54,605 nt of DNA, from IMG/VR virus record IMGVR_UViG_3300037114_000023, positions 1-54,605 of that record; one strand, written 5' to 3'. Position numbers and translations under genes: made by a program. The notes under the pieces were generated by a model, which was not told the DNA's origin, made no database searches, and was given only the letters and a program-made list of their open reading frames with translations. The stretch comes from a virus (Duplodnaviria > Caudoviricetes). This document shows positions 7,153 through 46,492 of the stretch, piece by piece (within the stretch, counting starts at the first letter, position 1; the number at the start of each line of letters is the position of its first letter).

Positions 7153-7794
7153 ATGTCCGAGATAACATCACTCTCAATAAACAAGGCGCTTTTGGATGCC
7201 GAAGGAAACTTCGACATCGCCGCGGCTTCCCTGGATTTGACGGTTGAGAGGCTGCGTGACCGGGTGAAGGAAGATGCCGCGCTCAATACCAGATGGCTGG
7301 CAAATGCCGCAGCGCCGCCCAGCACAGCCATCCTGAACCGGGAGTCTGACCCCGCGATCATCGAGGCTTTGCAGCGGGAGGAATCGAAGATAAAATCTGG
7401 ATTGGAAAAGATGGGGCTTACCCAAAACCAGACCGGTGTGGCCGTGGCCTGCATGGGGTTTTACAAACAGCACTTCGCCTCCCTGCTGAACCTTACCGGC
7501 GGCGGACTGGCCAAAACTGTGGTTGAGGCGCTGGAGTCTGTTTCGGAGATGGGCAGGGAAATCAAGGAGATTGGGAAGCCTACGCTCCCGCAAGACCTGG
7601 AATATCTCAAGGCGTTGCTCCGCGCGCGTTCCGATTTGCAGGATTACATCCTCCGGGCCTCGACGATGGTGAACCAAAGCCTGCTGATTCTTGCCAAGGT
7701 GCAAAACATTTCCGGTGCCGGCAGGAGAGCCGCCGGACCAGGGCGCCCCGGATTTGACAGCGTGAGGCGGGCGGATGTCACTGAAACAGAATGA
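7153..7794 (+). CDS. Probable terminase small subunit
   Basis: N-terminal HTH-like GNFDIAAASLDLT; helical; ATGA-coupled to TerL. Confidence 0.6.
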   Translation: MSEITSLSINKALLDAEGNFDIAAASLDLTVERLRDRVKEDAALNTRWLANAAAPPSTAILNRESDPAIIEALQREESKIKSGLEKMGLTQNQTGVAVACMGFYKQHFASLLNLTGGGLAKTVVEALESVSEMGREIKEIGKPTLPQDLEYLKALLRARSDLQDYILRASTMVNQSLLILAKVQNISGAGRRAAGPGRPGFDSVRRADVTETE

Positions 7795-9386
7795 AAACAG
7801 AAAAGATGACCAGCGAAGGGGTTGAGCTTTTGGCCCAATATCTCGGCGACCAGATTGAGCCGACCGACGCGCCGCCACCGCCGAAAGGAAAGCCTTCTAA
7901 GGCTCCCGCAGATGGCTGGAACCCTGATCTTAACCCGACCCAGAAGAAAATCTTCGACGACCCTGCTGAGAACATCCTAGCTCATTCCGAGAAAGGCGCG
8001 GGAAAAACCATCGGCTTCGCGCACAAGGCCATCCGGCACGCTTACGAGAACAAGAACGCACTCGTCCTGATTATCACGCCGACGATACGAACCGGCAATG
8101 AAGGCATCTGGTACGAAATGGAGACATTGATACTTCCCGCCTGGTCGGAAGGCATTGGACTGGAATACACGAGTTCGCGGCTGGACCCGCTCACGAAAGA
8201 CCGGCATCGCTGGATACGAAACAAGTTTGGAGGCTGGTCGAAACTCCTGCTCATGTCCATCCCGTACGCCAGTCAGGTCGAGGCGCGCATGGCAGGCATG
8301 GCCCCGAGCATGGTTGTGATTGACGAGTTGGACAAATGCGATGGGCGCGAATACTGGACGCTGGTATCCTCGCAGTTGGGACGCCGCAAAGGCATCACTG
8401 GTCCGCAACAATACTGCGCGTCCTGCAACCCCAAAGGGCCGATCCACTGGGTCTATCAGGTATTTTTCGTGGAAAACGTCCATCAGGATACCGGCAAGCA
8501 GATGCACAATTTCTCGGTTTACCATGTTCCGATTACCGAGAACATTCACCGGTTGCCGCCGGGATACGTCGAGCGATTGCACTCGACCTGGGCCAATGAC
8601 CCGATCATGTGGAAGCGGCTCGTCGAAGGCATCTGGATTGACGTTCCAAGCGGTGACGGCCTTTTCAAAATGCAGTTCCGGGCGGACATCCATATCAAGG
8701 GCGATGCCGCAAAGGGGACTGGATTACAGCCCAAGGTGGGTTATCCGGTTTACATCGGGTACGACATAGGCCAGGTGTGGCAGGGCATCACCTTTTTACA
8801 GTCCATCCCGACGCCGGGAAAAAACATCTGGATCGCCTTCGATGAATGCGACCATCTGGACGAGCGCGTAATTTTCAAGGTGCTGGCATGGGAAGTCATC
8901 GAGCGAATGCGCTACTGGCGGAGACGGATGAATTACCAGTTTCAGTACGTGCATATCACAGACGAGAGCGCCATCAACCAATGGCGGCCCGGCGGCGAGG
9001 GCAGTTACGACGCATGGGAGTTCGAGCGGGAGTTTAACGAGGTTCTGGGCGAGTTCGGCGCTATCGGCGCGGAGGGAAAAGTTGAGCCGGCGAAGATGCT
9101 GGGTTGTCCAAAGGGGCCTGGCTCCATAGCGGCCCGCGTGCGGTTGTTGCAGAGTAAATTGCTGCAACAGGAGTTTTTCGCAGGGGCGCAATGCGCGAAC
9201 GTCAAGGATTGCCTGATTAACCTTGACCGGGACAAGAAAGACCCGTCCGTTCCCAGCCGGTCAAGGTGGTCGCACAAATTCGATTCGATTACCTACGTGC
9301 TGTTCAAGGTGGAGATCGGCGGAGACGCGCGGCTGCATCTTACGATTGCCCCTCAACCGGCGGTCAGGCTGATACGGCTGCGGTAG
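7791..9386 (+). CDS. terL: Terminase large subunit
   Basis: Walker A HSEKGAGKT, Walker B VVIDE, coupling motif ASCNP, nuclease IGYDIG and C-terminal HKFDS. Confidence 0.9.
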   Translation: MKTEKMTSEGVELLAQYLGDQIEPTDAPPPPKGKPSKAPADGWNPDLNPTQKKIFDDPAENILAHSEKGAGKTIGFAHKAIRHAYENKNALVLIITPTIRTGNEGIWYEMETLILPAWSEGIGLEYTSSRLDPLTKDRHRWIRNKFGGWSKLLLMSIPYASQVEARMAGMAPSMVVIDELDKCDGREYWTLVSSQLGRRKGITGPQQYCASCNPKGPIHWVYQVFFVENVHQDTGKQMHNFSVYHVPITENIHRLPPGYVERLHSTWANDPIMWKRLVEGIWIDVPSGDGLFKMQFRADIHIKGDAAKGTGLQPKVGYPVYIGYDIGQVWQGITFLQSIPTPGKNIWIAFDECDHLDERVIFKVLAWEVIERMRYWRRRMNYQFQYVHITDESAINQWRPGGEGSYDAWEFEREFNEVLGEFGAIGAEGKVEPAKMLGCPKGPGSIAARVRLLQSKLLQQEFFAGAQCANVKDCLINLDRDKKDPSVPSRSRWSHKFDSITYVLFKVEIGGDARLHLTIAPQPAVRLIRLR

Positions 9387-10236: not shown

Positions 10237-10561
10237 CCAGCGGCACAATAAGGAGCATCCCTTGGACTCAATGGTCGCTCCGCTGATTTTCAGCCGGTAT
10301 CGGCAGGCGGGAATCATCCCCGGATGGGGTGTTGAGAGGGTGAGAAAACTGGCGCATTTGTCGAACCGCACGGTCGAGGAACTCGGGGCGATGGCGGGAC
10401 TCATGCCGAGCGAGACGAGGACAGCAATGAAAAGAGGCTTGTTTTCCCCGCCGGTAAGCCTACATTTCGCCATGATTGACGCCGCATTAAGGTCCGCAAA
10501 GTTTGGCGAACCGAGCGAGCCGATTGTGCCTTTGGAAATTACCGCAGAAAAAGAAACCTGA
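10220..10561 (+). CDS. HTH-like hypothetical protein (start uncertain)
   Basis: RVRKLAHLSNRTVEELGAMAGL. Confidence 0.5.
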   Translation: MKRTINQRHNKEHPLDSMVAPLIFSRYRQAGIIPGWGVERVRKLAHLSNRTVEELGAMAGLMPSETRTAMKRGLFSPPVSLHFAMIDAALRSAKFGEPSEPIVPLEITAEKET

Positions 10562-10562
10562 A

Positions 10563-11279
10563 ATGCCAGCCAGATTACAACTCGTGGGGCAGAAGTTTAA
10601 CAAACTCACCGTAGTAGAGTCCGCTGGTTCAAGCAAGTTCGGAACGAGCCTTTGGAGGTGTGTATGCGAGTGCGGTGGTGAAAAGGTTGTGATTGGCAAT
10701 AATCTTAAAACCGGCCATATAAAAACCTGCGGCTGTTCGATTTATTCCAATAATAAGACCCCGGACCAAAAGAAAGAAATCAAGTTCGCCCATGAGGCCA
10801 GACGAAAGGCGGCATATAAAGCAAGTCCAGAAAAGAGAAGGGCTGCGGTAATTCGGGCGAGGCGGTGGATGAATTCAAATCCAGAAAAGTGGCGAGAGGG
10901 ACACAGAGTTTATCAAGCTAATTTGCGACAGCAGCCGCGCAATAAGATTCATTCAAGGATGTCTGCCGGGGTTCGGGCATCCATGAGGGATGGAAAGAAT
11001 GGGCGAAGCTGGGAATCAATTCTTGGCTACACGTCCGCCGATCTTCACAGGCATTTGAAACTGCTTTTCAAGCCGGGAATGACCTGGGAGAAATTCGCCG
11101 CAGGGGAGATTCATATTGACCACATCATCCCGAAGGCGAAGTTTTCGTTCACTTCGGAGAATGACATTGACTTCAAACGCTGTTGGGCGATGGAGAACCT
11201 GAAACCGGAGTGGGCGCTTGTGAACACATCGCGCGGAAGCAAAATTCTTGAACCGTCACAAATCGCTTTAGGTGTATAA
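10563..11279 (+). CDS. HNH homing-type endonuclease
   Basis: N-terminal GQKFNKLTV...WRCVCECG DNA-binding module; C-terminal HIDHIIP...CWAMENL. Confidence 0.8.
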   Translation: MPARLQLVGQKFNKLTVVESAGSSKFGTSLWRCVCECGGEKVVIGNNLKTGHIKTCGCSIYSNNKTPDQKKEIKFAHEARRKAAYKASPEKRRAAVIRARRWMNSNPEKWREGHRVYQANLRQQPRNKIHSRMSAGVRASMRDGKNGRSWESILGYTSADLHRHLKLLFKPGMTWEKFAAGEIHIDHIIPKAKFSFTSENDIDFKRCWAMENLKPEWALVNTSRGSKILEPSQIALGV

Positions 11280-11281
11280 AT

Positions 11282-13717
11282 ATGCCTCTGGATTTTGAAA
11301 TTCTAAACCAGTTTGGGACTTCTGACGAAGTAATAAGAGAGTTTTTTTGCAGTGTCCCTCCGACTGGGGCGCAAGAAGCAAAAATGACAAAGAAAGAATT
11401 ACGCACTAGGGAGCGTAATTGCAAGCAGCGGAAGCGGTTTGAGACCTGGCTGAGTGGGATCTTGCAGGAACACATTGTTTTCTCCTTATCAAATCATTCC
11501 AAGTACGCGGCTGTAGATATGGCGTGGGATTCATTTCCAGTAAATTCCCATGTCGTTCCCTTGATGTTGTACGCGTCTGGGCGTTGTGATTTAGCCAAAG
11601 TTGAAAGCAGTCTGAAAAGCGTCGAAGGGGGAAGCAACTATCTCCGAAAAAACGACAAAGGCGAAGTCGTCGGCGTAAACCTGCCAAAGTTCTACGAGGT
11701 CAACATCAACCTTCTGCGCTCGGTGATTACCCGCCGTCGGGCCGCGCAAGTCGAGAAATATGACCGGCTCTATCCGTATTTCCTTTACGAATCCCGCGAC
11801 CAGACCCAGGTGGGAAAACTTCGCGCCGACATGGTGAGTCAACGCATGGACGTGATGGCCGACCAGTTTGGCTACCGGCACATGATGTCGCAGGCAACCC
11901 TCCACATGCTGCTTTACGCGCATACCGCGGCATTTCCCAGAAGCTATTGGGAGCGCGAGGTGTCGCTGGAAAAAATGCCCGGTAACGCGAAAACCGAGGA
12001 CGGAAAAATTCGCACGCGCACGCGGGTTACACGCGAGGGAATCTCATGGGTGCTGCCGCATCCCAGCCGTTTGTTTTACGACAACAATTACCCGCTGACT
12101 TCGCTCAACGAGGATCAGGGCTGCGAGTATGTCGGCTTCTGGGACGTGACCCGCTGGGGCGACATCGCGCACAATCCGGATTATTTCAATCGGAAGAAGG
12201 TGAGCTACACGTCGGGCATGGTGGACTGGTTCTCAACCTACTGGGCCTACTTCAACCAGTATTTCACCACGATTATCCCGCCCTCGATTCCTTCGGCGCG
12301 CGGCGACAATGTCAATTTCACGAACGACAGGAAGAATCAGGTCGGGCTGTTCACCGGCAACATGGAGCAAGTCTCGACCATCTTCACGCATTTATGGGTA
12401 AAGGTGCTGCCGCAGAACTGGGGCTGGGGCCGCTATCCATATCCGATTTGGGTGCATTTGAAAGTGGCCGGGGACGCCACGGTCGTTTACGCTAAGATTT
12501 GCCCGTCGTCACCGGCGGCGGTATTTTCCCACAACGAGAATGATGCCCGACTGTTCAATATCTCGCTGGCGCATGAGTTGATGCCGTTTCAGGACCAGCT
12601 TACGAATTTGTTCACGCAATTTCTCGAAACCGTCCATCAGGACTTGCTCTCTGTGTGCGTGCTGAACACCGATGTATTTCCCGATACGGAGGAAGGAAAA
12701 TCGGCCCGTGCGGATTTTGAGGCGGTGTTGAGCGGCAAGGATACCAATGCCTCGATGCACCTTTTGGAAGTCAGTTACATGAAGCTAAAGGAGTTGGGCA
12801 TTGACGCCAAGGACGTGTTTACCGTGGTTCGCGCCAAACCGAACACCAGCATTGACAAGATTTTCGAGTCCATCACGCAGCTTTTGAACATGACTGACCG
12901 GCTGGAGGTCATGTCCCCGCATGAACAGGCGCAAGCCGCGAGCCACGAAATCAGCGCCACTGAGAGTCATCAGATGGGGCAAAGCACGGACACGGTTTTT
13001 AATTTCATTTCGACCGGCATAGACGAGGGAAGGGCCGCGATTAAGCGGATCTGTTACGACTCACTGGTGTCCTGTTCGGAAAATGATTTGGAACTTACCG
13101 TCGCCAATCGGTATGCCGACGACGTGGTCAAGGCCGCCGGCTTCAAGCCAACCGGCGATGCGATGGCGGACTCGCTTGGCTTTACGAGGCTCATGGGCGA
13201 CAAAACGGATTTGATTCACGATTACATTTTCACGTCCAGGGATGCCGGGGATCGTCCGGCGGGTTCGCAAGCCGCGCAGATATTGGTTCAAATGTTGCAG
13301 GCCATCGGAAGTTTCGAGGCCGACATGCAGCAAGCGATTTTGGCGGCGATGGGCAAGACCAAGCTGTTCGAGATAATGAACACGATTTTCCGCGCCATTG
13401 ACGCCGGGATTGACCTGAAACTCGAATTGAAGCCCGGCGAGAAGGACGAACTGTTAATGTCACAGGACGAGCAGATGAAGTCCGCGATGAGCCGGATGGC
13501 GGGGATGCTGCAAAAGGACACGCAAGACATTGACGACATCCACCAGTTTTTGCAGGCGTTGACCCAGATTATCGGCCAGAGCAATCCGGCGGCAGGGCAG
13601 CAAATCGCGCAGTTAATGCAGCGGTTGCAGGCCGGGGCGCAGAAGCAGTTGCAGACACCGCAGCCCGGAGGGCCGCCGGGAGCGCAACCGCCGGGCCAGC
13701 CACCACAGCAGTTTTAA
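11282..13717 (+). CDS. Portal protein
   Basis: 811 aa, position after TerL, helical Gln/Pro-rich C-terminus as in P22-like portals. Confidence 0.75.
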   Translation: MPLDFEILNQFGTSDEVIREFFCSVPPTGAQEAKMTKKELRTRERNCKQRKRFETWLSGILQEHIVFSLSNHSKYAAVDMAWDSFPVNSHVVPLMLYASGRCDLAKVESSLKSVEGGSNYLRKNDKGEVVGVNLPKFYEVNINLLRSVITRRRAAQVEKYDRLYPYFLYESRDQTQVGKLRADMVSQRMDVMADQFGYRHMMSQATLHMLLYAHTAAFPRSYWEREVSLEKMPGNAKTEDGKIRTRTRVTREGISWVLPHPSRLFYDNNYPLTSLNEDQGCEYVGFWDVTRWGDIAHNPDYFNRKKVSYTSGMVDWFSTYWAYFNQYFTTIIPPSIPSARGDNVNFTNDRKNQVGLFTGNMEQVSTIFTHLWVKVLPQNWGWGRYPYPIWVHLKVAGDATVVYAKICPSSPAAVFSHNENDARLFNISLAHELMPFQDQLTNLFTQFLETVHQDLLSVCVLNTDVFPDTEEGKSARADFEAVLSGKDTNASMHLLEVSYMKLKELGIDAKDVFTVVRAKPNTSIDKIFESITQLLNMTDRLEVMSPHEQAQAASHEISATESHQMGQSTDTVFNFISTGIDEGRAAIKRICYDSLVSCSENDLELTVANRYADDVVKAAGFKPTGDAMADSLGFTRLMGDKTDLIHDYIFTSRDAGDRPAGSQAAQILVQMLQAIGSFEADMQQAILAAMGKTKLFEIMNTIFRAIDAGIDLKLELKPGEKDELLMSQDEQMKSAMSRMAGMLQKDTQDIDDIHQFLQALTQIIGQSNPAAGQQIAQLMQRLQAGAQKQLQTPQPGGPPGAQPPGQPPQQF

Positions 13718-13747
13718 CAGCAGTAAACCAAAACCGAGACGAAAATT

Positions 13748-14062
13748 ATGAAAGTAATCACTGACGGGCACCGCTACGAGTTGCCAAACTTCGAGCGACC
13801 CGACCAAAAAGGGCAGGAACTCCAGTTCATCGAGAAACTTCCCGAAACAGGAAACCCCACACGCCTGCTAACCGTAAACGACGGCACCACGAACGAGGCT
13901 GTGCTGGAGGTGCTTATTGACCGCCTGAACTATCTCAACGGCAAGTTTCCCTGCCGTGAAAACTCCGTCGCTCTGACGCATTTGGACTCGGCTTTGTTAT
14001 GGTTAAACAAGCGCACCAATGACCGGAAGAAACGCGGAGTTGAAGGAAAGGCGGCGGCATGA
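13748..14062 (+). CDS. tad1: Tad1/Acb2-family immune signal sponge (anti-Thoeris/CBASS-like)
   Basis: GTTNEAVLEVLIDRL...FPCRENSVALTHLDSALLWLNKRTNDRKKRGVEG resembles the Tad1 C-terminal helical hairpin. Confidence 0.72.
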   Translation: MKVITDGHRYELPNFERPDQKGQELQFIEKLPETGNPTRLLTVNDGTTNEAVLEVLIDRLNYLNGKFPCRENSVALTHLDSALLWLNKRTNDRKKRGVEGKAAA

Positions 14063-14310
14063 GTGAAAAAATCGAAGAAATAGAGGGCAAATTACGCACT
14101 GTGGTTTGCGACAACCTTGGCGTCGAGCCGACGCAAGTAACCAGCAGCGCGAGGTTCATCGAGGACCTGGGCGCGGATTCGCTGGATTGTGTCGAAATCA
14201 TCATGGGCGCGGAGGAAGCATTCCCCAGCCTTGAAATCCCCGACGAGGATTCCGAGAAGTTGACCACCTTCGGGCAGATGGTGGAATACATCAAAGAAAA
14301 GGTGGCTTAA
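14059..14310 (+). CDS. acpP: Acyl carrier protein
   Basis: FIEDLGADSLDCVEIIMGAEEAF phosphopantetheine motif; acidic, 83 aa. Confidence 0.93.
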   Translation: MSEKIEEIEGKLRTVVCDNLGVEPTQVTSSARFIEDLGADSLDCVEIIMGAEEAFPSLEIPDEDSEKLTTFGQMVEYIKEKVA

Positions 14311-14340
14311 ACCGTAAACCCCCAACCAAGAGACGAAATT

Positions 14341-15765
14341 ATGGCAGACGCACCCAGCACTGTAGCCCCCCCACCGCCCGCACCGCCCGAGCCACCGGCT
14401 GCACCAGCAGCGCCGGAACCGCCAAAGCCAGCCGCAGACCCGTTGCTTATGCGGATTCTGGAGGGTTTGAAGGGCGAGCCGGAAACCCCGGTGGTTGCCG
14501 CGGCACCCGAACCGCCGGTAGAGCCGCCAGTGGCACCGCCGGTTGAACCGCCCGTCGAGCCTCCTGTTGTTCCGGCCGCCCCAGCCGCCCCGGCAATCAA
14601 AAGGATAAGGTCGGTCGCGCAGGATCACCCGCTGTTATCCACCGAACCAGCCCCGCGCCAACCGGCAGTAGCGCCGGTATTGCCGCCGGTGACATCACAG
14701 CCGGACATGGCTCTCACCGAGGAACAGCGCGACGAACTGGCCGAGGCGATGGTGGCAGAGCGGTTGTTCCCTGATAAATACAAGGGATTTTCGGACAGGC
14801 TCAGGGCGTGGATGCAGAAATCCAGCAGCGAGCAAGAGGCCCTGTTCCAGCAAAATCCAAACATCACCCAGGAGGACGACGAGTATCAGGCCACTCTCAA
14901 GGGCAAGCCAAGGATAGGCGAGGGGGACGCGAGGAAGGTTCTCCGAACGATGGGCGCCGAGGAAGCCACCCGAGCCACCAGGCAGGAAATGCAGCCTGCC
15001 ATTGAGAAGGCGGCGATGGACGCCAAATACGCGAAGATACTGCCGGAGGTCAAGGAATTCGTCAGCAAGAAGTTCGGGCTGTATATCGCGCAGGTAATCC
15101 AGAGCGATGAAAAATCCCCGCTGTTGCCCTGCCTGAAACTTTACCTTGAGAAAGGCGAGGAAGCTGCGGCAAAGAAATACCCGCTGGAATTCAACATCCT
15201 CCGCGACCAGACCAGGACCATCCAGACCATGACGGCGGAGTTCATGTTCATGCGGAACAACGCGAAACCTTTCGATCCAGCCAACCCGCATCACCTTGCC
15301 GTGTCGGACTTTATCGCCCAGGAAGGGCGGGCCTTCGAGCAAAAAGGCGGGAAGATGCTGGTTCGCAATGGCCGGATGTTCATGCCCCGCGAAAAATTCC
15401 TGAGTCTCTACCGCACCGACCTGGAGGAATGGAAAAGCTGGGATGAACAAAACTGGACGACGAACCGGTATTGGACGTTCACGGACACCGCGATTACCGA
15501 CATGATGGGGTGGCGGGTGAAGCAGGCATCCGAAAATTTAATAGATGCCGAGCGTCAAAGGGCCAAAAGATACGGCTTTACGGAAGCGCCGCCCGAACAG
15601 ATTGAAAATCCGCAACCGCCGCCGCCGGAGCCGATACGCGCGCCAAGGACGACGGTAACTCCGGCACCTGGAAGCACGACGCCCCCGAAAACGGCCTCAA
15701 CCGAGGGCGATACCGCCATCCCGGTAAGCAAGGTGGCTTCCTACCTGAAAAAGACGACAGTTTGA
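14341..15765 (+). CDS. Probable capsid scaffolding protein
   Basis: Pro/Glu repeats (PVEPP), helical, between portal and capsid. Confidence 0.55.
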   Translation: MADAPSTVAPPPPAPPEPPAAPAAPEPPKPAADPLLMRILEGLKGEPETPVVAAAPEPPVEPPVAPPVEPPVEPPVVPAAPAAPAIKRIRSVAQDHPLLSTEPAPRQPAVAPVLPPVTSQPDMALTEEQRDELAEAMVAERLFPDKYKGFSDRLRAWMQKSSSEQEALFQQNPNITQEDDEYQATLKGKPRIGEGDARKVLRTMGAEEATRATRQEMQPAIEKAAMDAKYAKILPEVKEFVSKKFGLYIAQVIQSDEKSPLLPCLKLYLEKGEEAAAKKYPLEFNILRDQTRTIQTMTAEFMFMRNNAKPFDPANPHHLAVSDFIAQEGRAFEQKGGKMLVRNGRMFMPREKFLSLYRTDLEEWKSWDEQNWTTNRYWTFTDTAITDMMGWRVKQASENLIDAERQRAKRYGFTEAPPEQIENPQPPPPEPIRAPRTTVTPAPGSTTPPKTASTEGDTAIPVSKVASYLKKTTV

Positions 15766-15906: not shown

Positions 15907-17823
15907 ATGGCAATTACGAATACGCCTCCGGGAGCTTCCCAAACTCCAAACCAAGCCGCAAATGGCTTTAACGCTGATAATTGCAGTCCCCGGCTGATCG
16001 AGGTGGATGATGCAATGAGTCTCACCCGGGCGAACATCACTGGCTGGAACCCATCCGACATTGAATCCAATTTCTTCAAGGAAGTCGGGCTGGACCGGAT
16101 CATCGCGCAGACCAAAGAGGCGCGGATGGCCGGCTCGATGCAGCGTGTATTGAGCGACCTGTTGCTCTCGCGCCACACCCCGCTCAAGGTTGGCGGCGGC
16201 GTAAACACCCAGTCCATCATTCAGCCTTTCCGCTTGGTGCCGCGCCGGAACCGCGTGAATCCCGGATATTTCCGAATTCGCACAGGCGCAACACTGGCCA
16301 CTTGGACCGGCCAGGGTGGCAACGGCACCACGAATGTCGCTTTCACTGGAGTTTTCAACGGGGCCGTCAATTACAATTCCGCCATCGGCGCATTGTGGGT
16401 TTTGACCGTGAACAACGGCAGCATTGATGCAGATAGTTCGCCGTTCGCGAAATCCCCGAACAATGTCCTCAAAAATCCCGAGAAATATTTCCTTCCCAGA
16501 CATGGCCTTACCTGCGAATGGGTGGACAACAGTGGAAACCACCAGGTCGCGCAGATGAAGATTGTGGACAGCGCCTCCGGTGCGGACACCAATCAGGCTT
16601 ACATTTTGGTCTGCCCGAACCGGACGTTCAAGGGCGACTCGACCATCCCCAGCGGTACTTTGACCCCGAACGGCACTACGCCGGCAACAGTTACCGGTGT
16701 GTTTGGCGTCCTCTCCGCCTCGACAAATGGCTGGTGGGAATCCGCGAGTTCCGGCGTTCAGGCCACCTATCAGCCGCCAACCGGACTCTGCCGCATCGGC
16801 GCGAACTCGGTCAGCGATTATCAGCAATACGGCAACTCGACGCCCGGTTACAACGAGTACGGGCTGATCGAATACTGGAGGCAGACGCACCGCTGGGTTC
16901 ACCAGTATAACGATGAGTACGTCAAGGCATTGGAAGCCACGACCACGAGCGAAGGTTTGAAAAAGTTTCGGTTGCTTCCCCTCGCCAAGCTCCGCGCTCA
17001 ACAGGAGAAGTTTTCCGACGATTATTTCTTCGAGACCTGTTTTTACGGCGACATCATCAACGAAAACCAGACGGTTTCCGGATGGTTCAACCTGCCGCCT
17101 GTGGTTGACCCCGCGTGGGCGTCCTCCGGCCAGAGTGGCACGCTCGCCCTCGAATACCTGTCGAACACCATCGGCATCCGCCCGCAGATTGCGGCTTGCG
17201 GCAATGTGTTCGATTTCCAGAACGGCCCGCTCGACGTGGACGCCATTTTTGAAGCCGCTTACTTCGTGCGGCGCGAACGCCAGGGAGAGGCGACCCAGGA
17301 AGTCCGGGACATTGACATAATGACCGACAACCTTTTCACCCGGCCATTGCTGCGCCAGATGATGACCAAGTATTACAAGGCGAAATACGGCGTGGACAAT
17401 GTCCAGATGTGGATGAAGTCCGGCGAGAAAATCAGTTTCATGGGCATGGTAATGTTCGAGTATGACAGCTACGAACTGCCCGACCAGGGCTTGACCCTCC
17501 ATGTGTTCGGCGACAACTACTTCGATGACCGTGTGGCCCAGTTCCAGACCGGCCAGAAATCCGCTGGTCGCGGCATTTGGATGTTGGACTGGTCGGACAT
17601 CGCGGTCGGCGTGATGAAGTCCATGAGCGTGCCCCGCACGAACAATCTGGCGGACAACGTCTATAAGTTCGTCATCCAGCAGAACGTGCAGCATGTCCTG
17701 CTCAACAGCAAGACCTTTGAAGTCGCGGTCGGCAACACCAACCGCCATCGGCTGTTTGAAAACTACAGCGATTCGTGCGCGAAACTCACCGTCCCCGGTT
17801 GCGACCTCTCGGTGAACCAATAA
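15907..17823 (+). CDS. Major capsid protein with a large insertion
   Basis: 638 aa, position, strong codon bias, own leader and terminator context. Confidence 0.7.
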   Translation: MAITNTPPGASQTPNQAANGFNADNCSPRLIEVDDAMSLTRANITGWNPSDIESNFFKEVGLDRIIAQTKEARMAGSMQRVLSDLLLSRHTPLKVGGGVNTQSIIQPFRLVPRRNRVNPGYFRIRTGATLATWTGQGGNGTTNVAFTGVFNGAVNYNSAIGALWVLTVNNGSIDADSSPFAKSPNNVLKNPEKYFLPRHGLTCEWVDNSGNHQVAQMKIVDSASGADTNQAYILVCPNRTFKGDSTIPSGTLTPNGTTPATVTGVFGVLSASTNGWWESASSGVQATYQPPTGLCRIGANSVSDYQQYGNSTPGYNEYGLIEYWRQTHRWVHQYNDEYVKALEATTTSEGLKKFRLLPLAKLRAQQEKFSDDYFFETCFYGDIINENQTVSGWFNLPPVVDPAWASSGQSGTLALEYLSNTIGIRPQIAACGNVFDFQNGPLDVDAIFEAAYFVRRERQGEATQEVRDIDIMTDNLFTRPLLRQMMTKYYKAKYGVDNVQMWMKSGEKISFMGMVMFEYDSYELPDQGLTLHVFGDNYFDDRVAQFQTGQKSAGRGIWMLDWSDIAVGVMKSMSVPRTNNLADNVYKFVIQQNVQHVLLNSKTFEVAVGNTNRHRLFENYSDSCAKLTVPGCDLSVNQ

Positions 17824-17832
17824 GCCCAATAG

Positions 17833-17867
17833 CTGAAACGAAATATCGGTAAACTGAAACGAAATAT
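17833..17867 (+). repeat. Tandem 14-bp direct repeat
   Basis: CTGAAACGAAATAT at 17833 and 17854; the second runs into the ATG. Confidence 0.85.
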
Positions 17868-28882: not shown

Positions 28883-29467
28883 TTGGCGAATCAGATGGGC
28901 AAAGACTTTACATTGCTGGTAAAAGACCACTTCACCACCAGACCGAATGACATCCGCAAGGGCGCACTCATGCTGGATTATCAGGTTCGCAATCACGATG
29001 GCGTTGACTACGATGGAGTCGGCATTGGACCGGACCCAGGGATTAAACCGCTAATCGAGGACGCAGTGGGATTTACAATCAAGCAACGGCTTCTGTTCTT
29101 CCGGCTGGGCATGACAGGGATAAAAACAGCGGGCTATATTCATTGCGACCAGAATTGTGGTCAATACGCAGGCGTCCTTTATTTGAACCTGCCCCACCAG
29201 CGTTACGGCGGCACTTCATTCTGGAGGCACAAGGAATTTGAGATAAGCGAAATGCCGGACAACGCGAACGATGTCGCCGTGGCGACTCTCCGCAATGACA
29301 GTCTGGACGAAAGCAAGTGGGAACGCGACGGGCATGTCGAAATGCGCTTTAACCGATTTGTAACTTATCCGGCGCGACGTTTTCATAGTCGCTATCCGAA
29401 TGTCATTGAGGCTGCGACGAAAGAGGAAGGCCGGTTGATTCTGGCCGTTATGTATGACCGAGTCTGA
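28883..29467 (+). CDS. 2OG-Fe(II) oxygenase (DUF6445-like)
   Basis: IHCD...AGVLYLN...GGTSFWRH...FNR...FHSR...R. Confidence 0.8.
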   Translation: MANQMGKDFTLLVKDHFTTRPNDIRKGALMLDYQVRNHDGVDYDGVGIGPDPGIKPLIEDAVGFTIKQRLLFFRLGMTGIKTAGYIHCDQNCGQYAGVLYLNLPHQRYGGTSFWRHKEFEISEMPDNANDVAVATLRNDSLDESKWERDGHVEMRFNRFVTYPARRFHSRYPNVIEAATKEEGRLILAVMYDRV

Positions 29468-30083
29468 AACATTCCGCCAGCAGTTCAAGCAGCATCACTC
29501 TAAAGAGTCTGCCGACACGCTCATGCTGTCCAACATCGCGCACCTTGAACGGTTGATGAAGTTGCTGCCGCCAAACGCGCGCGGTCTTGAAATCGGCTGC
29601 TTCAAGGGCGGAGCGACCGTCTGGTTTCTGGAACACGGGATCGAGCGCATGACGGTGATTGATACCTTCGAGGGCAGCCCGGAGCATCAGAACATTGTGA
29701 AGCCGGGCGAGATACGGGCGGCGTTCGACGAAGCGGTCAAGCCCTACGCTGGCCGTGTGGCTGTGAGCAAGGGGAAGTCCAGCATGAGATTGCCGATATT
29801 ACTGCAAGGCAATCATTCCGGTCTCCGAAAGACCGCTCCAACGCTTTACGATTTTATCTACGTGGATGGGAGCCATGATTCTGTTGACGTGGTGTTGGAC
29901 GCCATACTCGCGTTCAAGCTGCTCAAGCCGGGAGGGGTGATGTGCTTTGATGATTACGAGTGGTGCTATTATCTCGACGCTTTCAGGAACCCGAAGCCCG
30001 CGATTGACTTCTTCCTTGCGAGCCATGAAGGGAAGTTTACGTTGCTGGAAAAGCATTATCAGGTGAGCATTCGGAAATTATGA
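29454..30083 (+). CDS. Class I SAM methyltransferase (Methyltransf_24-like)
   Basis: LEIGCFKG; DFIYVDGSH; LKPGGVMCFDDY. Confidence 0.88.
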   Translation: MTESETFRQQFKQHHSKESADTLMLSNIAHLERLMKLLPPNARGLEIGCFKGGATVWFLEHGIERMTVIDTFEGSPEHQNIVKPGEIRAAFDEAVKPYAGRVAVSKGKSSMRLPILLQGNHSGLRKTAPTLYDFIYVDGSHDSVDVVLDAILAFKLLKPGGVMCFDDYEWCYYLDAFRNPKPAIDFFLASHEGKFTLLEKHYQVSIRKL

Positions 30084-32420: not shown

Positions 32421-32687
32421 ATGAAATGCAAACATGAGCAATTTGAGGCCAAGGTGGATGTCAACAGACTTTCCGACAGTGGGAGGTTCTGCGCTGACAT
32501 CAAAATAAAGTGCCTCCAATGCGGGGAGTATTTCCGTTTTCTTGGGTTGCCGTGCGGGATTGACCTTGACGGTGCGGCGGTTTCCGCGGATGGAACGGAA
32601 ATGCGCGTGGCGATTGGAACCAATGAGACGGTGGCGAACATCATTGACGGAAAATGTCCAGTTGGATTCACTGTGCGCAGGGGATGA
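32421..32687 (+). CDS. Zn-binding hypothetical protein
   Basis: CKH...CLQC. Confidence 0.6.
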   Translation: MKCKHEQFEAKVDVNRLSDSGRFCADIKIKCLQCGEYFRFLGLPCGIDLDGAAVSADGTEMRVAIGTNETVANIIDGKCPVGFTVRRG

Positions 32688-33127
32688 TACGCGCACTACA
32701 ACCATACGAAGTCGGCCTTTGCGTCGAAGGCGGCAAACTCTTTTTTAAGGAGGGCGATCTTCCGGGAGGCTTCGACGCCAAACATTTCTGCGCCACTTGG
32801 GCGCAACTAATCACGGACAAACGGGCGGCGATTCTCGCGGGATTCACGGATGCCAATGTCATCACGGGTGCATTGGGCGCTGTGCTGGCTCCCGGATTGT
32901 TCAACGCCAAGACTTACGCCACCGAAGCATTTTGGTACGTGATACCTGGCTATCGCGGCCACGGCGTCGAACTTCTGCTGGCTTTTCAGGAGTGGGCCAA
33001 GAACGCCGGGGCGCACTACGTAGCCATGATTCACCTTCTCAATTTGCAGCCGGAACATCTGTCGAGACTGTATCGGAAAATGGGGTACAACCCCATTGAA
33101 ACAAACTACTTGAAGCCGCTTACGTAA
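32684..33127 (+). CDS. GNAT acetyltransferase
   Basis: FWYVIPGYRGHG...LYRKMGY; precedes the ejection genes as in many podoviruses. Confidence 0.8.
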   Translation: MIRALQPYEVGLCVEGGKLFFKEGDLPGGFDAKHFCATWAQLITDKRAAILAGFTDANVITGALGAVLAPGLFNAKTYATEAFWYVIPGYRGHGVELLLAFQEWAKNAGAHYVAMIHLLNLQPEHLSRLYRKMGYNPIETNYLKPLT

Positions 33128-35939: not shown

Positions 35940-38900
35940 ATGCCTGACCAACTCACAATAGAACAGCTTTTACAAGGTACTCCAAAGATACCGGAGGAAG
36001 GCGGACTGGATTCGCCCGCGCCACAGTCGAAGGGTAATCAGCCAGCGAGCACGTTGACGCTGGAGGGTTTGCTCAAGGGGACACCAGGGGCGGATCAGGA
36101 CGCAGTTCCACAGACTACCGCAATGGGCACAGCCGCACGCGCCGCAGTCTCGAACATCGGACCGGGTGCGGCTGCGGCGGCGGCTTTTCCGATTGGCGCG
36201 GAAAAGGGCGCTGCGATAGGGGCGCTTGTGCCCGGTGCGGGGGAAACCGGATTGTCGGAAGCTGCTGGAGGGCTAATCGGTGGAACCATCGCGGCAGGCG
36301 CGGCGGCATGGGCGGCAGCAAAGGCCCAACACGCACTAGCCTCGACGCTGGCTCCCGAGACCACGGAGAAGTTCAACCAAGCGGAAGCCGCGGGCGAGGA
36401 AGCGCATCCCGTTGCGGGTGCGATCGGGCGGCTGGCCACCATGCTTCCAATGTTCGAGTTTGCTCCGCAGAACACGGTGGGCGGACTATCGGCGCTTTAC
36501 AAGGCGGCTCGTGGCGGGACGCTCACGGTGGCGGAGAAGCTGGCGGCCAAAACTACAGCGAGTCAGGTGGGATTGCAGACCGGTCTTGGGGTGGTTCAGC
36601 CATTGATGTTTGGAGAAAGCCCGACAAAGAAGGGGATTGCAGAGGCTTTTGTCCAGTCACTTTTGCTGGGGCATCCTCGATATGAGATTTTTGGCGCTCC
36701 GGCAGCGGAGGCCATTGGGAAGGAGGAGGCGGCGACGGACGCGCAGACCGAGAAAGCGCAGGGTGTCGTTCAAAATCCAGCCTCAATCTACAGTCCGCCG
36801 CCGCCGCCCGACTTGACGCCGGAACAGCGCGGGCAACTGTCGGAATTGGCGGCTCGCACGGCATCGGGCGCGCCGGAGGACGTGAACGACGCCCAGCATT
36901 TGAAACTAATGGGCGAGAATGAGAACGCCCGGAAGTATTACGAGCAGCAAAAGCAGGGTTGGGCGCAACTCATGGCCTACACGCTGGCCGGCAAGTCCAA
37001 GATTGAGACGGTGGGGGATGGTGGTCAGGAATCTCCGCAAGCGCAGCCTCAAAAGTGGTATTCCTCAAATGATTCCGTTGGTCCAAAGCAGACACCACAG
37101 GGCGATACAATTCACGGATTATCACTCAGCCAAGACCCGCTTTACGCCGGAGAGTATTCAAAGACTGGGCAGGTTCACGAATTCGACTTGTCTGGGGCAA
37201 AACTGAAACCTGTCAGTTTTGACTATGGGATGACCATTACCACCGACAAGTTGAATCAAATCAGGTCGGAGGGTTACGACGGGGTATCGTTCGATGGGAT
37301 GCATGGCCCGGAGGTCGCTCTGGTAAACGATGTGGCTAAAAAGACCGGAACCGTCAACGCCTTGCAGGAGAAATTCAACGAGGCGATTGCGGACGGCAGG
37401 CCAATAGGGCGAGTGGAGCAGAGGCTCTACGCAGTGAAGGGCTTGCAGTTGCCGGAGGTTTACCACCAGCAGGAGGATGGCTCATGGATACGCGCAACCG
37501 AACCTGGAAAGCCACCTGGCGGCGATGCTGCACGCCTCGAACAACTCCGCGCCATCCCAGAGTCCCAACGCACGCCGGAACAGGCCGCGGAATTCAACGC
37601 GCTTGTGGCTAAATCCGGTTCCGTTAAGGACCAGATGGCGGCTGAATTTGCGAAACTCAAGGCGGCACAACCAATAGTTGACCAACCGGTAAACAATCCG
37701 CCCGTGGCTCCCGGCGGCAGCACACCCGCGATGGCGGAGTGGACTAAACATCAGGGCGATCCCGCTGAATTAGTCCAGAGGATGCAAAACACGGCTGAAT
37801 CCGGCAAGGTGGCCGTGGCGACTGGCGAGGGCGGTGTTGGCAGGAAGTCCGCCACAATGTATCAGGATTTGACCGGCAAGCCCGCTGGCGAAGCCAAGGA
37901 GCTTGTGCGGCAGGACGTGGCTGGATCCAAGGAAGCCGGGGCGCAATCCCGCAAGCTGGTGGCCATGCTGTCCCCGGACAAGTCCCATGTTCTCGTCGGG
38001 ACGGCCAGCGAAACCAGGAGCGGCGAGACGCGGACTTTGAAGGTCTCGACCTACGATGTGGGTGCTGGCCGTAAATCGCCCGGCGGTGAGCATTTCGCCA
38101 GCAATTACGATAAAATGGTGGCGGATGGCTGGCAGCCGTTGGCGAGTCTGAAAACCGACAAACCGGCCAAGGGATTCTTCGCTACGTATTCGCCAGAGCA
38201 GTGGAAAACCATTGAGACGGAACTGCGGGCGAGCCATCAGGCGGCGCAACGCACGGCGGAGGCGATGGAGCAACACCTTGCGGCTGGCAAAGACTTTGGG
38301 CGCGACGTTACCGTTAACGCTGACGAAACCGGAGAACACCCCCCGGAGGAAGCGCCGACACCTGAAGCGGCGGTTGAACACCCGCCGGAACGGGTTGTAA
38401 CGGCTGAACATGCGGAGGCTATCGCAGAGGCAATCAAGGGCTTAAAACCCGAGGACATTGCCGACCAGAACTCGATGGCGTTAGCGATAAAGAAGGCCGG
38501 ACCGGATGCGGTCGAGGCTTTCAAGGTCATGGTTCGCCATGCCTTCGATGCCGGTTTTCCAGAAGATAAAGCGGTAAGTATCGTGCATGAAATACTTTAT
38601 GAACATTCAAGAAGCGGCGAAACGAGTGGGCCAGAAGTGGAAAAGTCCTTCCTACAGAAAGTCGGCCAGGGCGGCGATGAAAACGCTGGGAATAACACCG
38701 GGAAGCCTCCAGGTCCAGACACAGGACCAGGTAGCGAAGCAGCCGGAAATAAACCAGGCGCAAGCGGAACTGAAACGGGAGCAAACCCAGATGCAGAAGG
38801 TGGCGGCAAAGGAGGGAGCAAACCCAATCCCGCAGGTACTCCCCTCGGCACTCCCGCCAGCATAGCCGGAAAGACAGGTAAGATTTTTCTGCCGGCCAAG

Positions 38901-41900
38901 CTGGAAAGGCCGCATGACATCGTGGACGAGATTCAGGGTCAGGTGGGTAAGATACGGTCGCAGAATGCAGCCAAGCCCGGCACGGAGGATCATTACGCCA
39001 CAGACGCTTATAAGCAGGTTCGCAAGGCGTTTCCCAATATGTTCTCCGATACCGGCAGCACGGCGGACCAAGTGGTATCCGCGCTCATGCGAACCGGCCA
39101 CTTTCAGGAAGGGGCCACCGTGGATGATTTGTGGGATGCGATGCTGCGCGCGCGCGGCGAGCGGACGGCTCATGCCCGCGGCCAGTTGCCGGAACAGAAG
39201 GCGGACAAGTTTCAGCAGGCGGTATCGGATAATCTTGCCAAAAAGGGTAGCCACAAGCTGTCGGTCGGCGAACTGTCGGTCGGCGACACGTTCAGGATTA
39301 AAGGCGCGAGCTTCGAGGTAAACCATATTGATCCGGACACCGGAGAGGTCCAGGTAAAGGATGGCAAGAAATTCGGCTATCAAGTCATCCCGGATGGTGC
39401 GGACATAGCCGTGGATGCTGGTTCGCTAAAGCAAAATCCTCCGGAATCCGGCGGTGACGACCCGTTCTCGGACGAAAATGTCCGCAATCGCACGCGCCAG
39501 GCCAAGGAGGAAGTTGAGAATCTTCGCCCGGGGGACGCCCATACCGCGAGAACGCTGGACGTGGTTGAGCGCAACCTTACCGCACTCGGCATCAAGGTCA
39601 GGCGGATTATTGACCCGTTGGTTGACCATTTCAGCACAGGTTCGTACAAGGAACTCACCAATGGCCGGGGCAACGCGGAGAGGATTGTCACCTACTCGGT
39701 AGCTGACGCCCACAAGCCATCGGCTGACAGCCTCGTCAGTCTCTACCACGAGGTTTTGCACGCGATATTCGCCAGGGAAAGCCCGGAAATGCAGGCGGCG
39801 GCGCAACGGGCGGTGCGGGACGTGTCGAACGAGGAATTGGGAATCGGCAAGTTCAAGGAGCAAGTCCCTCAAAATTTACCGGAAAACGTGAGGGAAGGCG
39901 TCCAGCAGGAAGGGCGCATAGCGGAATCTCTGGCCCGAAAGCTGGTCAACGACGGATTTGACCCAGTGACCGCCAACAGCTTCATGCAACGCGCCGTGCG
40001 GCTGATACGGGACGTTTACAACGGCGCACTCATGGCACTGGCCAAGGTGGCGGGGTATCCCATCAGCCAGGAACGGGCACTGGCGTACTTCGAGAACCGG
40101 ATGAAGATGGTGGTTTCCGGCGATATGATGTCTTGGATTAACTTCCTCGGTGGACCAAGGATGAAGATGCCAGACTGGGACAGCCCGAACATCGGCGGCG
40201 TGGAGCGTTACCGCAGCATCAACTCAGTCAGTAACCCGCGCAAGTATCTGGACACCAAAGAGGGCGCACCGACGGGAATTGCCGCACTCAACCACTTTTT
40301 GACTTCGATGAAGGCCATCGCCCATGAGTGGGGCGTCTCCGCTGGCAATCTCGCCGGCATGACGGACGAGCAGGTCATGGCACGATATATCAACCTGCCG
40401 GAAAAGCTGGGCGACCAGGATTTGTTCACGAACGGCGACACGCCGCAAAGCCTGATCGCCGACGCGGTAAAGCAACACGGCGTTAGTCCAGACACTAAAA
40501 TTAGTGATTTGCCTAACGACGTGGCCAAACAACGGGCCTTGGTTGTGACACACGGAATGCTGTCCGCGGTGAAGGCGGAAATGGAGGGTGTCGCAGGCGA
40601 GGCTCGCACGCAATGGAACAAGGACGCTAACGCATTGGAGCGCAATACCAGCCAACTTGACCGCCTGGCCAGTCATTACGTGGACATTGATTACATGGCC
40701 AGGACGGCCAGGGACTCGATGCTGCAACTCGTCAAGGACGTTACCGGCGCCGTCCGGGGCATCCGGGATGTCTCGGCGAGAAAAGGCGAGGTCGAACAGA
40801 CCTTGGCGCAACTGGACCCTGCCAGCCAACTCAACGGCCAGTTGACGGCGCCGTACCGGAAGGCACTTGATGTAATACAAAAACGGCTGTCCGGCGAAGT
40901 GACCACGAATTTCGCGGATGCTCTGCAAACCATTGGCAGCATGGACATTGACTGGAAACGACCGAGCCATGACATTGCCAATGACTTGCTCGCCAAACAC
41001 AGTGAGAACCCGGAATTGAACCATGCGCTTCGGGAATTCCTTGGGGACAATCCGGAGTCGAAGGCGTTGCTGTCCACGTTGATTGCCTACGGTAAGGCCA
41101 ACAGTCATATGATGGACATGCTCGCGCTCCGGGCCGACCGCGCCAGCGAGAATAAGATTGAGGCTAACCAGATTTTGCGGGACATGGTGGGCGCGAGCAA
41201 GGGAATGCTCGCGGAACTCAAGCAGCGCATCAATTCCACGTTCGGGAAAAACATGCGGATGCGCGACCGGATGCTCCGGATTTCCGATAAGATGGATGAT
41301 TTGAGCGACCGCAACCATGACCTGTTGGACTCCATTGCCCGCAATAAATCGCTGGTGGACTTTCATGAGGACATTTTTAAACCGGCGGTGAACGGGGAAC
41401 TTGCGGCCGTAGAGAAGGAAACCGGCATCACGCTCAAGAATTTCGAGGTTGTGCATGACGCCGAAGTCTCCGTCCCTGCCAAGCCCGATGCGACCCCGGA
41501 CCAGTTCGCAACGAGAACGCTTAAAATTCGCACAGCCTTGGGCAAGCGCGGCGATTTGCCGACGCCATCGGCGGAGGTCATCGGCTGGCAGCGATCAATT
41601 CAAAAGTGGCTGGACAATCCGGAGAACCTGAAGTACGGGGCCAAATACAACGAGATGGCGGACGTGGCGCTGAAACTGAAAAACCACGCCATCAGCAATG
41701 AACACCTGAATATCAAAACGAATTTCCTGGAACGGATGCTCGCGCCGATACAGGACCGATGCCGACAGGCCGGGACAGAGGCGGCGCGATTGGCTGGGCA
41801 GGGGTTTAATAAATTCTCGTCGCTCGTCCGTGGCAAGCGGGAAATGGCCGTCCAGACCGGCACCAATTTTTCCGCGCAACTCAGCCGGGCAAAGAAGGCG

Positions 41901-45764: not shown

Positions 45765-46048
45765 GCCTTCCCCTCCGTCTCTTTCTTCGGCAGCACTTTG
45801 TCGAGCGCGGCGAGGGCTTCATCCCATTTTTTAGCAGAGGTGGTTCGTGACAGCAGTTGATTGCGAACCGGTTGCCATGCTTTAAATGCCTCTCTCGCCA
45901 ACTCCATCGCCTCTTGCGGCGCGGTAAAGTGGCGGGTGATAATGAGGGCTAGAACGTTCCTTGTAAAAGGACTGCTACCGCCAATTTCTTTCTGTATCTC
46001 CTCCGCCGCGTTAACAGCGAATGGAAGGGGTTGGGTGGGTTCGCTCAT
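45761..46048 (-). CDS. Hypothetical protein
   Basis: Coupled ORF starting MSEPTQ. Confidence 0.6.
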   Translation of the reverse strand: MSEPTQPLPFAVNAAEEIQKEIGGSSPFTRNVLALIITRHFTAPQEAMELAREAFKAWQPVRNQLLSRTTSAKKWDEALAALDKVLPKKETEGKA

Positions 46049-46488
46049 AAATTCAGGTTCTTCACCCATTTCATTTTTTGTTCCTGCGGCTGGTCAGTCC
46101 GTCTGTCGGGCCGCGTCTGCCAACTGCCATTTTTGGTCATGCCTTCACACTTCCAGCCCGAAGCCTTTAAACTAGTTCCGAGTTCAGTTTGAAGTATGAA
46201 TGTCTGGATTGATTTGAAAGCCAACTCCTTTGCCGCACGAGCTGCTTGAGCATAGAGGAATGAGCAGGCATTGGGCGTTCCGTCAGTTGTCAGGCGGGTA
46301 ACTTCCGCAATGTTTTTCTGGTCTGTTTGGCGAGCGACCGGCCTGCCAACGATAACACACCCCACAAGCCTACCGTTTACCGCCGCGCCAATACTGAATC
46401 TGTGGCCGACAACGGGCTTGTGATGGCGATGTAATTTTGCCACGAACTCATTTGCCTCAGTCAATTCGATTCTCACAGCTTTCAGCAT
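46045..46488 (-). CDS. XF1762-family GNAT/Mom-like protein
   Basis: EANEFVAKLHRHHKPVVGHRFSIG...GRPVAR...EVTRL.TDGTPNACSFLY. Confidence 0.8.
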   Translation of the reverse strand: MLKAVRIELTEANEFVAKLHRHHKPVVGHRFSIGAAVNGRLVGCVIVGRPVARQTDQKNIAEVTRLTTDGTPNACSFLYAQAARAAKELAFKSIQTFILQTELGTSLKASGWKCEGMTKNGSWQTRPDRRTDQPQEQKMKWVKNLNL

Positions 46489-46492
46489 AAAT

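Follow-up and report, generated by a model that had tools for sequence, protein, structure and literature searches.

A Tad1-family signal sponge gene and an acyl carrier protein gene share an insertion between the portal-like and scaffold-like genes of a peat-soil tailed phage

In this study we analysed two small overlapping genes of a tailed phage (Duplodnaviria; Caudoviricetes) from peat soil. The whole stretch of DNA, here called the window, is the 54,605-nucleotide IMG/VR virus record IMGVR_UViG_3300037114_000023, a linear record of 54.6 kb with an estimated completeness of 76%. The first gene (13748..14062, plus strand) encodes a 104-amino-acid (aa) protein of the Tad1 family of signal sponges. 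The second (14059..14310, plus strand) encodes an AcpP-type acyl carrier protein (ACP) of 83 aa with the phosphopantetheine serine S41. The two open reading frames (ORFs) share the four bases ATGA at 14059-14062 and are flanked by a portal-like gene on the left (11282..13717, plus strand, 811 aa) and a scaffold-like gene on the right (14341..15765, plus strand, 474 aa). An earlier note on this DNA had described a two-gene unit with an ATGA overlap between portal and scaffold, and both ORFs are indeed present there. It had further proposed that sponge and ACP form an undescribed counter-defence system, or that the ACP donates acyl groups to virion proteins. Our analysis leads us to a different interpretation, which we regard as probable: a lineage-specific cargo insertion (moron) of two genes at the portal-scaffold junction, both of kinds that are already known.

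Sequence, fold and predicted ligand residues all place the 104-aa protein in the Tad1 family. In a phmmer search against the PDB, the only significant matches were Tad1 chains, including CmTad1 (8kbb, 1.8e-10) and CbTad1 (7uav, 9.4e-10), with values ranging to 1.1e-9. The Pfam family PF24729 (Acb2_Tad1_hairpin) matches residues 43-88 with 27.1 bits, and with 27.4 bits in a six-frame search, and phrog_2428, which has no assigned function, matches at 1.1e-22. A tblastn search matched 116 phage records, among them an SBSphiJ7 gene annotated as Tad1 (52.6% identity over residues 45-100, 1e-12), and full-length relatives were found in 43 viral contigs at 52-72% identity. The AlphaFold2 (AF2) model, built from a 35-row alignment, has a predicted local distance difference test score (pLDDT) of 91.6, with strands at residues 2-5, 9-12, 23-27, 29-33 and 36-44 and helices at 49-66 and 70-96. 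All Foldseek matches to this model at E<=0.001 are Tad1 chains, the next match having an E-value of 0.4, and the template modelling (TM) score to 8kbf_B is 0.69. The best structural alignment by VIA-align is to 8smd_B (Z 8.6, root-mean-square deviation (rmsd) 2.8, 94 residues, model range 1-102). The top eight rows are all Tad1, with Z 7.9-8.6 and rmsd 2.8-3.9 for 90-95 residues spanning 1-102, while the remaining rows, including T4 Vs.4/Acb2, align with the hairpin only.

The roles of individual residues, the CbTad1 and CmTad1 numbering and the Tad1 architecture follow the passages on these proteins in bioRxiv 10.1101/2023.11.15.567273. Ligand residues were mapped by hand from the phmmer alignment, in which the 124-aa chain carries the published numbering. 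The CbTad1 residues F82, N92, R109 and R113, which belong to the pocket for glyco-cyclic ADP-ribose (gcADPR) and dinucleotides, correspond to Y62, N72, R89 and R93 in the window protein. The trinucleotide-site residues R90 and T97 (R88 and T95 in CmTad1) correspond to R70 and T77. All six published ligand residues of CbTad1 are kept or conservatively replaced, the change from F82 to Y62 being the conservative one. Across 35 relatives R89 never varies, and T77 and R93 each reach a conservation of at least 90%. Five residues of the CmTad1 hexamer interface, Q98, E99, M102, W103 and K106, correspond by sequence alignment to D80, S81, L84, W85 and K88. The Tad1 identification made in the earlier note is confirmed by the phmmer matches, by the Tad1-only Foldseek result and by these kept residues, and the structural comparison with Tad1 that it had proposed gives a match over the whole length of the model.

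The family to which the protein belongs is large. Our search returned 2986 representative clusters at E<=0.001, of which 501 reach 1e-10, and most of the best ones are 100-105 aa long; bioRxiv 10.1101/2025.08.24.671296 gives 1,587 non-redundant Tad1 homologues in IMG/VR v3. Some members are longer. The 241-aa protein P0179 matches both PF24729 and the NUDIX family PF00293, each with 33.5 bits, the two being fused or called together. It could combine a sponge with a possible hydrolase of ADP-ribose derivatives, or alternatively it could be a gene-calling read-through. In P0158, P0182, P0194 and P0217, Tad1-like cores of about 100 aa carry strongly acidic, low-complexity C-terminal tails of 50-85 residues.

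The second gene product is, judged by its sequence, an intact AcpP-type ACP. Its PF00550 score of 39.6 bits exceeds the cut-off of 20.8, and it matches phrog_5934 ('acyl carrier protein') at 1.1e-16. Solved ACP sequences match it in 97 cases at E<=1e-6, the best being 2ehs at 2.1e-21. Among 5.8 billion proteins, those closest to it are cellular ACPs with an identity of 55-62%, and those with a named source come from Verrucomicrobia, Victivallaceae, WOR-3 and Cloacimonas; its own 90% cluster has a single member. The DSL motif (D40-S41-L42) is intact, as the earlier note had reported, and D43, E46, E52 and E53 are present, in columns that are 78-100% conserved in the 119 nearest relatives. Every column that is invariant among these relatives is kept in the phage protein, and its isoelectric point of 4.07 is close to their median of 4.05. 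The earlier note was also right that there is no other fatty-acid gene to be seen: Pfam scans of 48 window ORFs found neither a Fab enzyme nor a phosphopantetheinyl transferase in this 76% complete record, and a six-frame search of the window with PF01648 (ACPS) gave 0 matches, with controls positive in 10 of 14 genomes. Both the fab enzymes and the phosphopantetheinyl transferase would normally come from the host.

The position of the two genes is best understood by comparison with related phages. These comprise three contigs found by the capsid protein, eight found by capsid alignment and one contig of a metagenome-assembled genome (MAG), which share terminase, portal, scaffold and capsid genes. 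The portal-scaffold junction could be compared in 11 loci; a further locus, L060, was left out, its match coordinates duplicating those of L059. In 10 of the 11 junctions the scaffold ATG lies 3-9 nt past the portal stop, compared with a gap of 623 nt with two genes in the window. The remaining junction, in IMGVR_UViG_3300010883_009916 (locus L057), has a gap of 905 nt and contains a trypsin-like ORF (L057:3562-4461) of 299 aa, whose N-terminus is hydrophobic and which has a Trypsin_2 match of 36.6 bits. Since the window and L057 bear different cargo at the same junction, the portal-scaffold junction is an insertion site that has been used at least twice. No Tad1-like or ACP gene was seen in the fetched stretches of the related contigs. 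One relative, G051, which is 98% complete and has a capsid protein 57% identical to that of the window, does possess an ACP elsewhere in its genome (L070:6746-7015; PF00550 58.4-58.6 bits). Its start and the stop of an 84-aa Zn-ribbon ORF overlap. The ACP gene lies among small Zn-ribbon ORFs, which are below every family cut-off, about 1.7 kb upstream of an integrase gene. The G051 and window ACPs are 46% identical and have the rare I47 and F71 states in common. As no Tad1 hairpin (PF24729) is found in the G051 record, ACPs appear to recur in this lineage independently of Tad1.

The adjacency of the two genes is no artefact of assembly, because it is bridged in two further studies of peat metagenomes. 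In run X3 the overlap of the two genes is spanned by a contig of 151 nt (13980-14130), and a 158-nt contig of run X2, from another study, runs from the ACP gene through its stop to the start of the scaffold-like gene (14190-14347). Both keep the reading frame and show 0-1 differences to the window. Run X1 contains the whole stretch and may be the source sample. The GC content at third codon positions (GC3) is 0.66 in the Tad1-like gene and 0.68 in the ACP gene, similar to the 0.70-0.74 of their neighbours, so neither gene looks freshly imported.

We then asked how often the two genes are found together. The Tad1-like and related records were retrieved through shared 8-residue peptides, which finds close relatives only. 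No ACP was found within about 5 kb of the Tad1-like gene in any of 43 loci, either by tblastn or by phmmer at E<=0.1 on six-frame ORFs. None of the 43 whole Tad1-like records has a PF00550 match above the cut-off, the single sub-threshold match scoring 14.2 bits (E 0.007). Conversely, the 5 kb or so around the ACP in four ACP-related viral loci contain no Tad1-like ORF (0/4). PF24729 was found in none of 16 records, made up of the 11 related phages, three ACP-bearing IMG/VR records and two GenBank ACP phages, whereas the same search on the window, as a positive control, scores 27.4 bits. Among cultured phages, no accession is common to the 40 of 116 Tad1-like rows and the 40 of 44 ACP rows that were listed, as compared by eye. 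In 36 non-redundant loci the Tad1-like gene has varied neighbours: the 141 flanking ORFs, up to two on each side, include genes of recombination, replication, lysis and virion structure, among them exonucleases, RecT, helicases, methylases, endolysins, connector and terminase genes. By eye, 12 longer Tad1-like proteins carry acidic or low-complexity tails and in one case a NUDIX domain, with no ACP-like extension, and Pfam found no PP-binding domain in P0179, P0198 and P0231. A complex prediction with two Tad1-like copies and the ACP scored 0.00 against a mark of 0.32, a 'no answer' result without controls that we used neither way.

These results do not bear out the coupled, undescribed Tad1-ACP system suggested in the earlier note. 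The neighbourhood comparison that it had proposed shows no co-occurrence in any set examined, an outcome that the note itself had listed as counting against the idea, and the pair is not kept in the relatives, of whose 11 junctions 10 are empty and one holds the trypsin-like ORF. Because the pair co-occurs in no other phage examined, it looks like two separate cargo genes rather than a new system, brought together by a single event at an insertion hot spot. The carrier would be a peat-soil tailed phage with an SU10/crAss-like capsid and an integrase. Its first cargo gene would encode a somewhat shortened Tad1, which by homology would assemble into an oligomer, as solved Tad1 does into a hexamer. 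This protein is predicted to soak up gcADPR made by Toll/interleukin-1 receptor (TIR) domain proteins and/or the cyclic di- and trinucleotides of the cyclic oligonucleotide-based anti-phage signalling system (CBASS). With these signals sequestered, the effectors of Thoeris and CBASS would never be switched on. The second cargo gene would encode an ordinary AcpP-type carrier, which would need modification by the host AcpS because the phage encodes no phosphopantetheinyl transferase, and which would most likely serve as an auxiliary metabolic gene in the acyl-ACP pool of the host. Orphan ACP genes are present in 44 records of the phage collection searched by tblastn, and passages of PMC8224337, PMC11924767 and PMC13573597 report such genes in phages as auxiliary genes. 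Both genes would share transcription with the late head genes and be linked in translation via the ATGA overlap, which probably reflects tight packing at the hot spot with translational coupling, and no dedicated partnership.

Several observations weigh against this reading. The PF24729 score sits exactly at the family threshold (27.1 against 27), and two of the five CmTad1 interface positions studied by mutation differ in the window protein (Q98/E99 to D80/S81), with L84, W85 and K88 kept or similar. The ACP has a one-residue insertion, P56 after F55, that is unique to it, and F71 where 119 of 119 relatives have V, as well as C44, A51 and A54, which are rare or absent among the same 119 proteins. 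These odd residues are at or close to helix II, which binds partners, and the acyl pocket, and for this reason the ACP may not behave as a plain carrier of fatty-acid synthesis. It is also unaccompanied by any fab gene. Many of the compared records are fragmentary, with only 13 of the 43 Tad1-like records being at least 90% complete; the co-occurrence tests cover close relatives only, and the pair itself is a single occurrence. Finally, the neighbours of sponges in hot spots can be anti-signalling genes, as described in the parts of bioRxiv 10.64898/2026.06.04.730250 that deal with such loci.

The odd residues and the precedent of sponge neighbours raise the question whether the ACP counters defence or aids host takeover in its own right, as a second factor at the same hot spot with no direct tie to Tad1. 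It might then serve as a decoy for the holo-ACP of the host or take its place, or it might buffer lipid synthesis against effectors that target the membrane and are switched on by these same signals. We think this unlikely, but we keep it as a rival because of the precedent of phage Ab09 and because of the unusual residues near the partner-binding surface. In Ab09, three adjacent genes each counter CBASS and Thoeris, two of them by mechanisms other than a sponge, according to the passages on this phage in bioRxiv 10.64898/2026.06.04.730250. In the relatives of our phage, G051 also keeps an ACP among its small Zn-ribbon ORFs near the integrase, and neither this ACP nor that of the window is accompanied by fab genes. 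On the other hand, our literature search turned up no link between phage ACPs and defence, and the ACP passages of PMC13573597 make none. Orphan phage ACPs occupy many contexts, for instance between gyrase subunits in phiXF1. The Zn-ribbon neighbours in G051 reach no family cut-off, and the two ACPs of the lineage are less similar to each other (46% identity) than each is to cellular ACPs.

A further possibility is that the ACP gene came along with the Tad1-like gene, or was captured next to it, as a neutral passenger that does nothing for the phage. Its unique occurrence, with a 90% cluster of one member, and the fact that no partner genes were found would fit this. We consider it improbable, as all invariant ACP residues are intact, the GC3 of 0.68 is like that of the neighbours (0.66-0.74) and speaks against a fresh import, the frame is kept with 0-1 differences in contigs from other samples, and G051 keeps an ACP too. 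We give somewhat less credence still to the broader idea that phages of this peat lineage repeatedly recruit AcpP-like carriers as counter-defence or host-takeover factors and not as metabolic genes. If it were true, C44, A51, A54, the P56 insertion and F71 would make the ACP a decoy, which would titrate an ACP-dependent factor of the host or sustain membrane lipid synthesis under effector attack, in parallel to the sponge.

That the Tad1-like protein and the ACP are physically or functionally coupled, as a dedicated two-component counter-defence unit, seems very unlikely. The ATGA overlap implies co-translation and both genes lie in one insertion site. Their adjacency recurs in the two further peat metagenomes, although the near-identity of the contigs means that these are probably the same phage. 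Four-base overlaps are, however, routine in compact phage operons. The pair is absent from every comparison (0/43, 0/43, 0/4 and 0/16), none of the 12 longer Tad1-like proteins inspected by eye, three of them Pfam-scanned, carries an ACP-like extension, Tad1-like proteins of about 100 aa are widely encoded by stand-alone genes, and G051 has its ACP without Tad1. Equally improbable is the suggestion that the ACP donates acyl groups to virion proteins, possibly with the GNAT acetyltransferase at 32654-33127: the ACP does sit within the head module and the GNAT-family gene is among the downstream genes of the structural region, but the two are 18 kb apart, the three of 11 related records with GNAT homologues (G055, G057 and G058) all lack PF00550, the sole ACP-bearing relative, G051, has no GNAT match, and 10 of 11 relatives build heads without an ACP at the junction.

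Two separate cargo genes in a head module remains our preferred interpretation, and the assignment of that module needs some comment. Upstream of the portal-like gene are the terminase large subunit gene (7791-9386; PF03237, phrog_2 at 2.2e-20) and, between terminase and portal genes, an ORF similar to HNH endonucleases (10503-11279, plus strand; phrog_374, 7.5e-20). The scaffold-like gene is followed by a capsid-like gene (15907-17823, 638 aa). The portal-like, scaffold-like and capsid-like proteins have no Pfam or PHROG family match. Homologues of the portal-like protein, 48-71% identical, are found beside terminase and capsid genes in related viral contigs, and its language-model look-alikes are SU10/P22 portal clusters (score 0.96). 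Its profile search against the PDB gave two solved portal chains at a non-significant E of 0.25-0.28, with an unrelated MarR protein at E 0.3, and its AF2 model is poor (pLDDT 41.5 from an 11-row alignment). For the capsid-like protein the look-alikes are Crass_capsid/SU10_MCP clusters (score 0.98); the PDB profile search returned no match, and neither did tblastn among 50,697 phage records. The scaffold-like protein has a Pro/Ala-rich N-terminus and homologues of 23-41% identity directly after the portal gene in related contigs. We accept the head module because of these look-alikes and because the order terminase, portal, scaffold, capsid is kept in the related contigs, with the evidence being weaker for the individual labels: those of portal and capsid follow from look-alikes and synteny, and that of the scaffold from position and composition only.

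Each of the two cargo boundaries has a spacer of 30 nt. The first runs from the stop of the portal-like gene to the start of the Tad1-like gene (13718..13747, plus strand), with GAGACGAAAATT directly before the ATG. The second runs from the ACP stop to the start of the scaffold-like gene (14311..14340, plus strand), with the near-identical GAGACGAAATT directly before the ATG. Both ATGs are preceded by GAGACGAAA(A)TT, and similar strings are found before the capsid gene and the next gene. More generally, immediately before the ATG of the Tad1-like and scaffold-like genes, of the capsid-like gene and of following genes there are A-rich leaders that fit GA(G/A)ACGA(A)A(A)T(T) (13736-13746, 14330-14340, 17835-17866 and upstream of 15907), with no string resembling a Shine-Dalgarno sequence, and the leaders of Tad1-like genes in other contigs are likewise A-rich and without such a string. 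In the relatives, where the portal stop and scaffold ATG are 3-9 nt apart, this leader is absent. That the two spacers are a duplicated leader is no more than an impression: the motif GAAACGAAAWT, with one mismatch allowed, occurs in the whole window at the level of chance (6 seen, 3.86 expected, 20 of 100 shuffles reaching 6), a search for gapless repeats did not pick up the two spacers, and a MAFFT alignment of six leaders was uninformative. A search for promoters and terminators between 11000 and 18600 was also at chance, with four sigma-70-like sites (3.5 expected) and 13 terminator-like sites (10.4 expected). As no above-chance site separates the pair from the head genes, co-transcription with these late genes is the simplest assumption.

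Other features of the window deserve mention. The plus-strand block ends with an ORF of 3031 aa (35940-45035) without a Pfam or PHROG family, reminiscent in position and size of the giant virion proteins known from N4-like and crAss-like phages. The presumed tail genes include matches to DUF6445 (39.9 bits) and to the class I methyltransferase family PF13578 (51.3 bits) at 28883-30083 (plus strand), and the GNAT acetyltransferase gene at 32654-33127 (plus strand, 25.3 bits). A minus-strand block contains genes for a Mom-like protein (46045-46545; 24.7 bits, below the cut-off of 27.1), a tyrosine integrase (48704-49819; 35.2 bits) and a HerA/DUF87-type ATPase (50953-52752), which also matches the terminase family phrog_2666 at 2.5e-20. 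The presence of the tyrosine integrase suggests that the phage is temperate. In L002, the closest Tad1-like locus, a Mom-like gene (98.3 bits) is likewise among the neighbours. Acidobacteriia were considered as the host but not adopted: the one scan of genome contigs gave only a 5.3-kb contig binned with an uncultured Acidobacteriia MAG, whose best ACP is only 44% identical to that of the phage.

In terms of significance, the Tad1-like gene would be one more environmental member of a sponge family that is already large. The short form of about 100 aa appears to be the common one in soil and peat phages, and its gene can be located within a late head operon. Its striking position next to an ACP gene would be a single event and not a conserved system. 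The locus and G051 are reasonable test cases for the role of orphan ACPs, although they do not make this question newly tractable.

When compared with the known Tad1 references, namely CbTad1 (7UAV, 7UAW, 8SMD, 8KBE, 8KBF), CmTad1 (8KBB-8KBD) and SBSphiJ7 Tad1, the window protein has the same N-terminal antiparallel beta-sheet and two C-terminal helices. Its identity to Tad1 in the structural alignment is 28-31%, and in the hairpin it is 52.6% identical to SBSphiJ7 Tad1. It also keeps the predicted residues of the gcADPR/dinucleotide pocket and the trinucleotide site and the conserved C-terminal V-E-G. It differs in being 104 aa long instead of about 122-132 aa, as it is without the first 15 or so residues, its model aligning from Tad1 chain residue 15-17 onward, and has shorter loops. 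Further differences are the Y in place of F82, D80/S81 at two hexamer-interface positions and, unlike the references, the location of its gene in the late head operon of a peat phage. With Acb2 and T4 Vs.4 it has in common the two-helix hairpin, which Pfam groups as PF24729. However, the alignment with Vs.4 (7UQ2) is confined to the hairpin, with 56 residues at rmsd 7.0 and a Z of 6.4, as is also seen for unrelated helical hairpins; the five-strand sheet is of the Tad1 type, and no Acb2 chain was found by Foldseek at E<=0.001. We did not assign the protein to Acb2, the Vs.4 match being limited to the hairpin and the N-terminal sheet being present.

The window ACP resembles bacterial AcpP (2EHS, 1X3O, 1L0H) in its length of 83 aa, its PP-binding domain, its DSL serine and its acidic helix II. 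Unlike these, it is encoded by a phage in which no fab or phosphopantetheinyl transferase gene was found, has an insertion after F55 and the residues C44, A51, A54 and F71, and reaches a best identity of 62% to any of the 5.8 billion proteins. It is also like the orphan phage ACPs of PHROG 5934, such as those of Ralstonia phage phiRSL1, Prochlorococcus phage P-HM2, Xanthomonas phage phiXF1 and Rhodobacteraceae prophages, which are stand-alone acpP-like genes in phage genomes with a moron or auxiliary annotation. It is only 28-54% identical to them, and its position in a head operon after a sponge was not seen in the two annotated records inspected; PF24729 is absent from these two and from three ACP records of IMG/VR. 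A parallel to the arrangement as a whole is offered by the hot spot of the Migulavirinae phage Ab09 (gp59 Acb4-Sequestin, Bes1 and Bes2). According to the account of this locus in bioRxiv 10.64898/2026.06.04.730250, its neighbouring genes counter defence experimentally and the locus is conserved across the subfamily, whereas the insertion in the window is absent from all 11 relatives. What the two loci have in common is a sponge placed in an accessory insertion site, with small genes adjacent to it.

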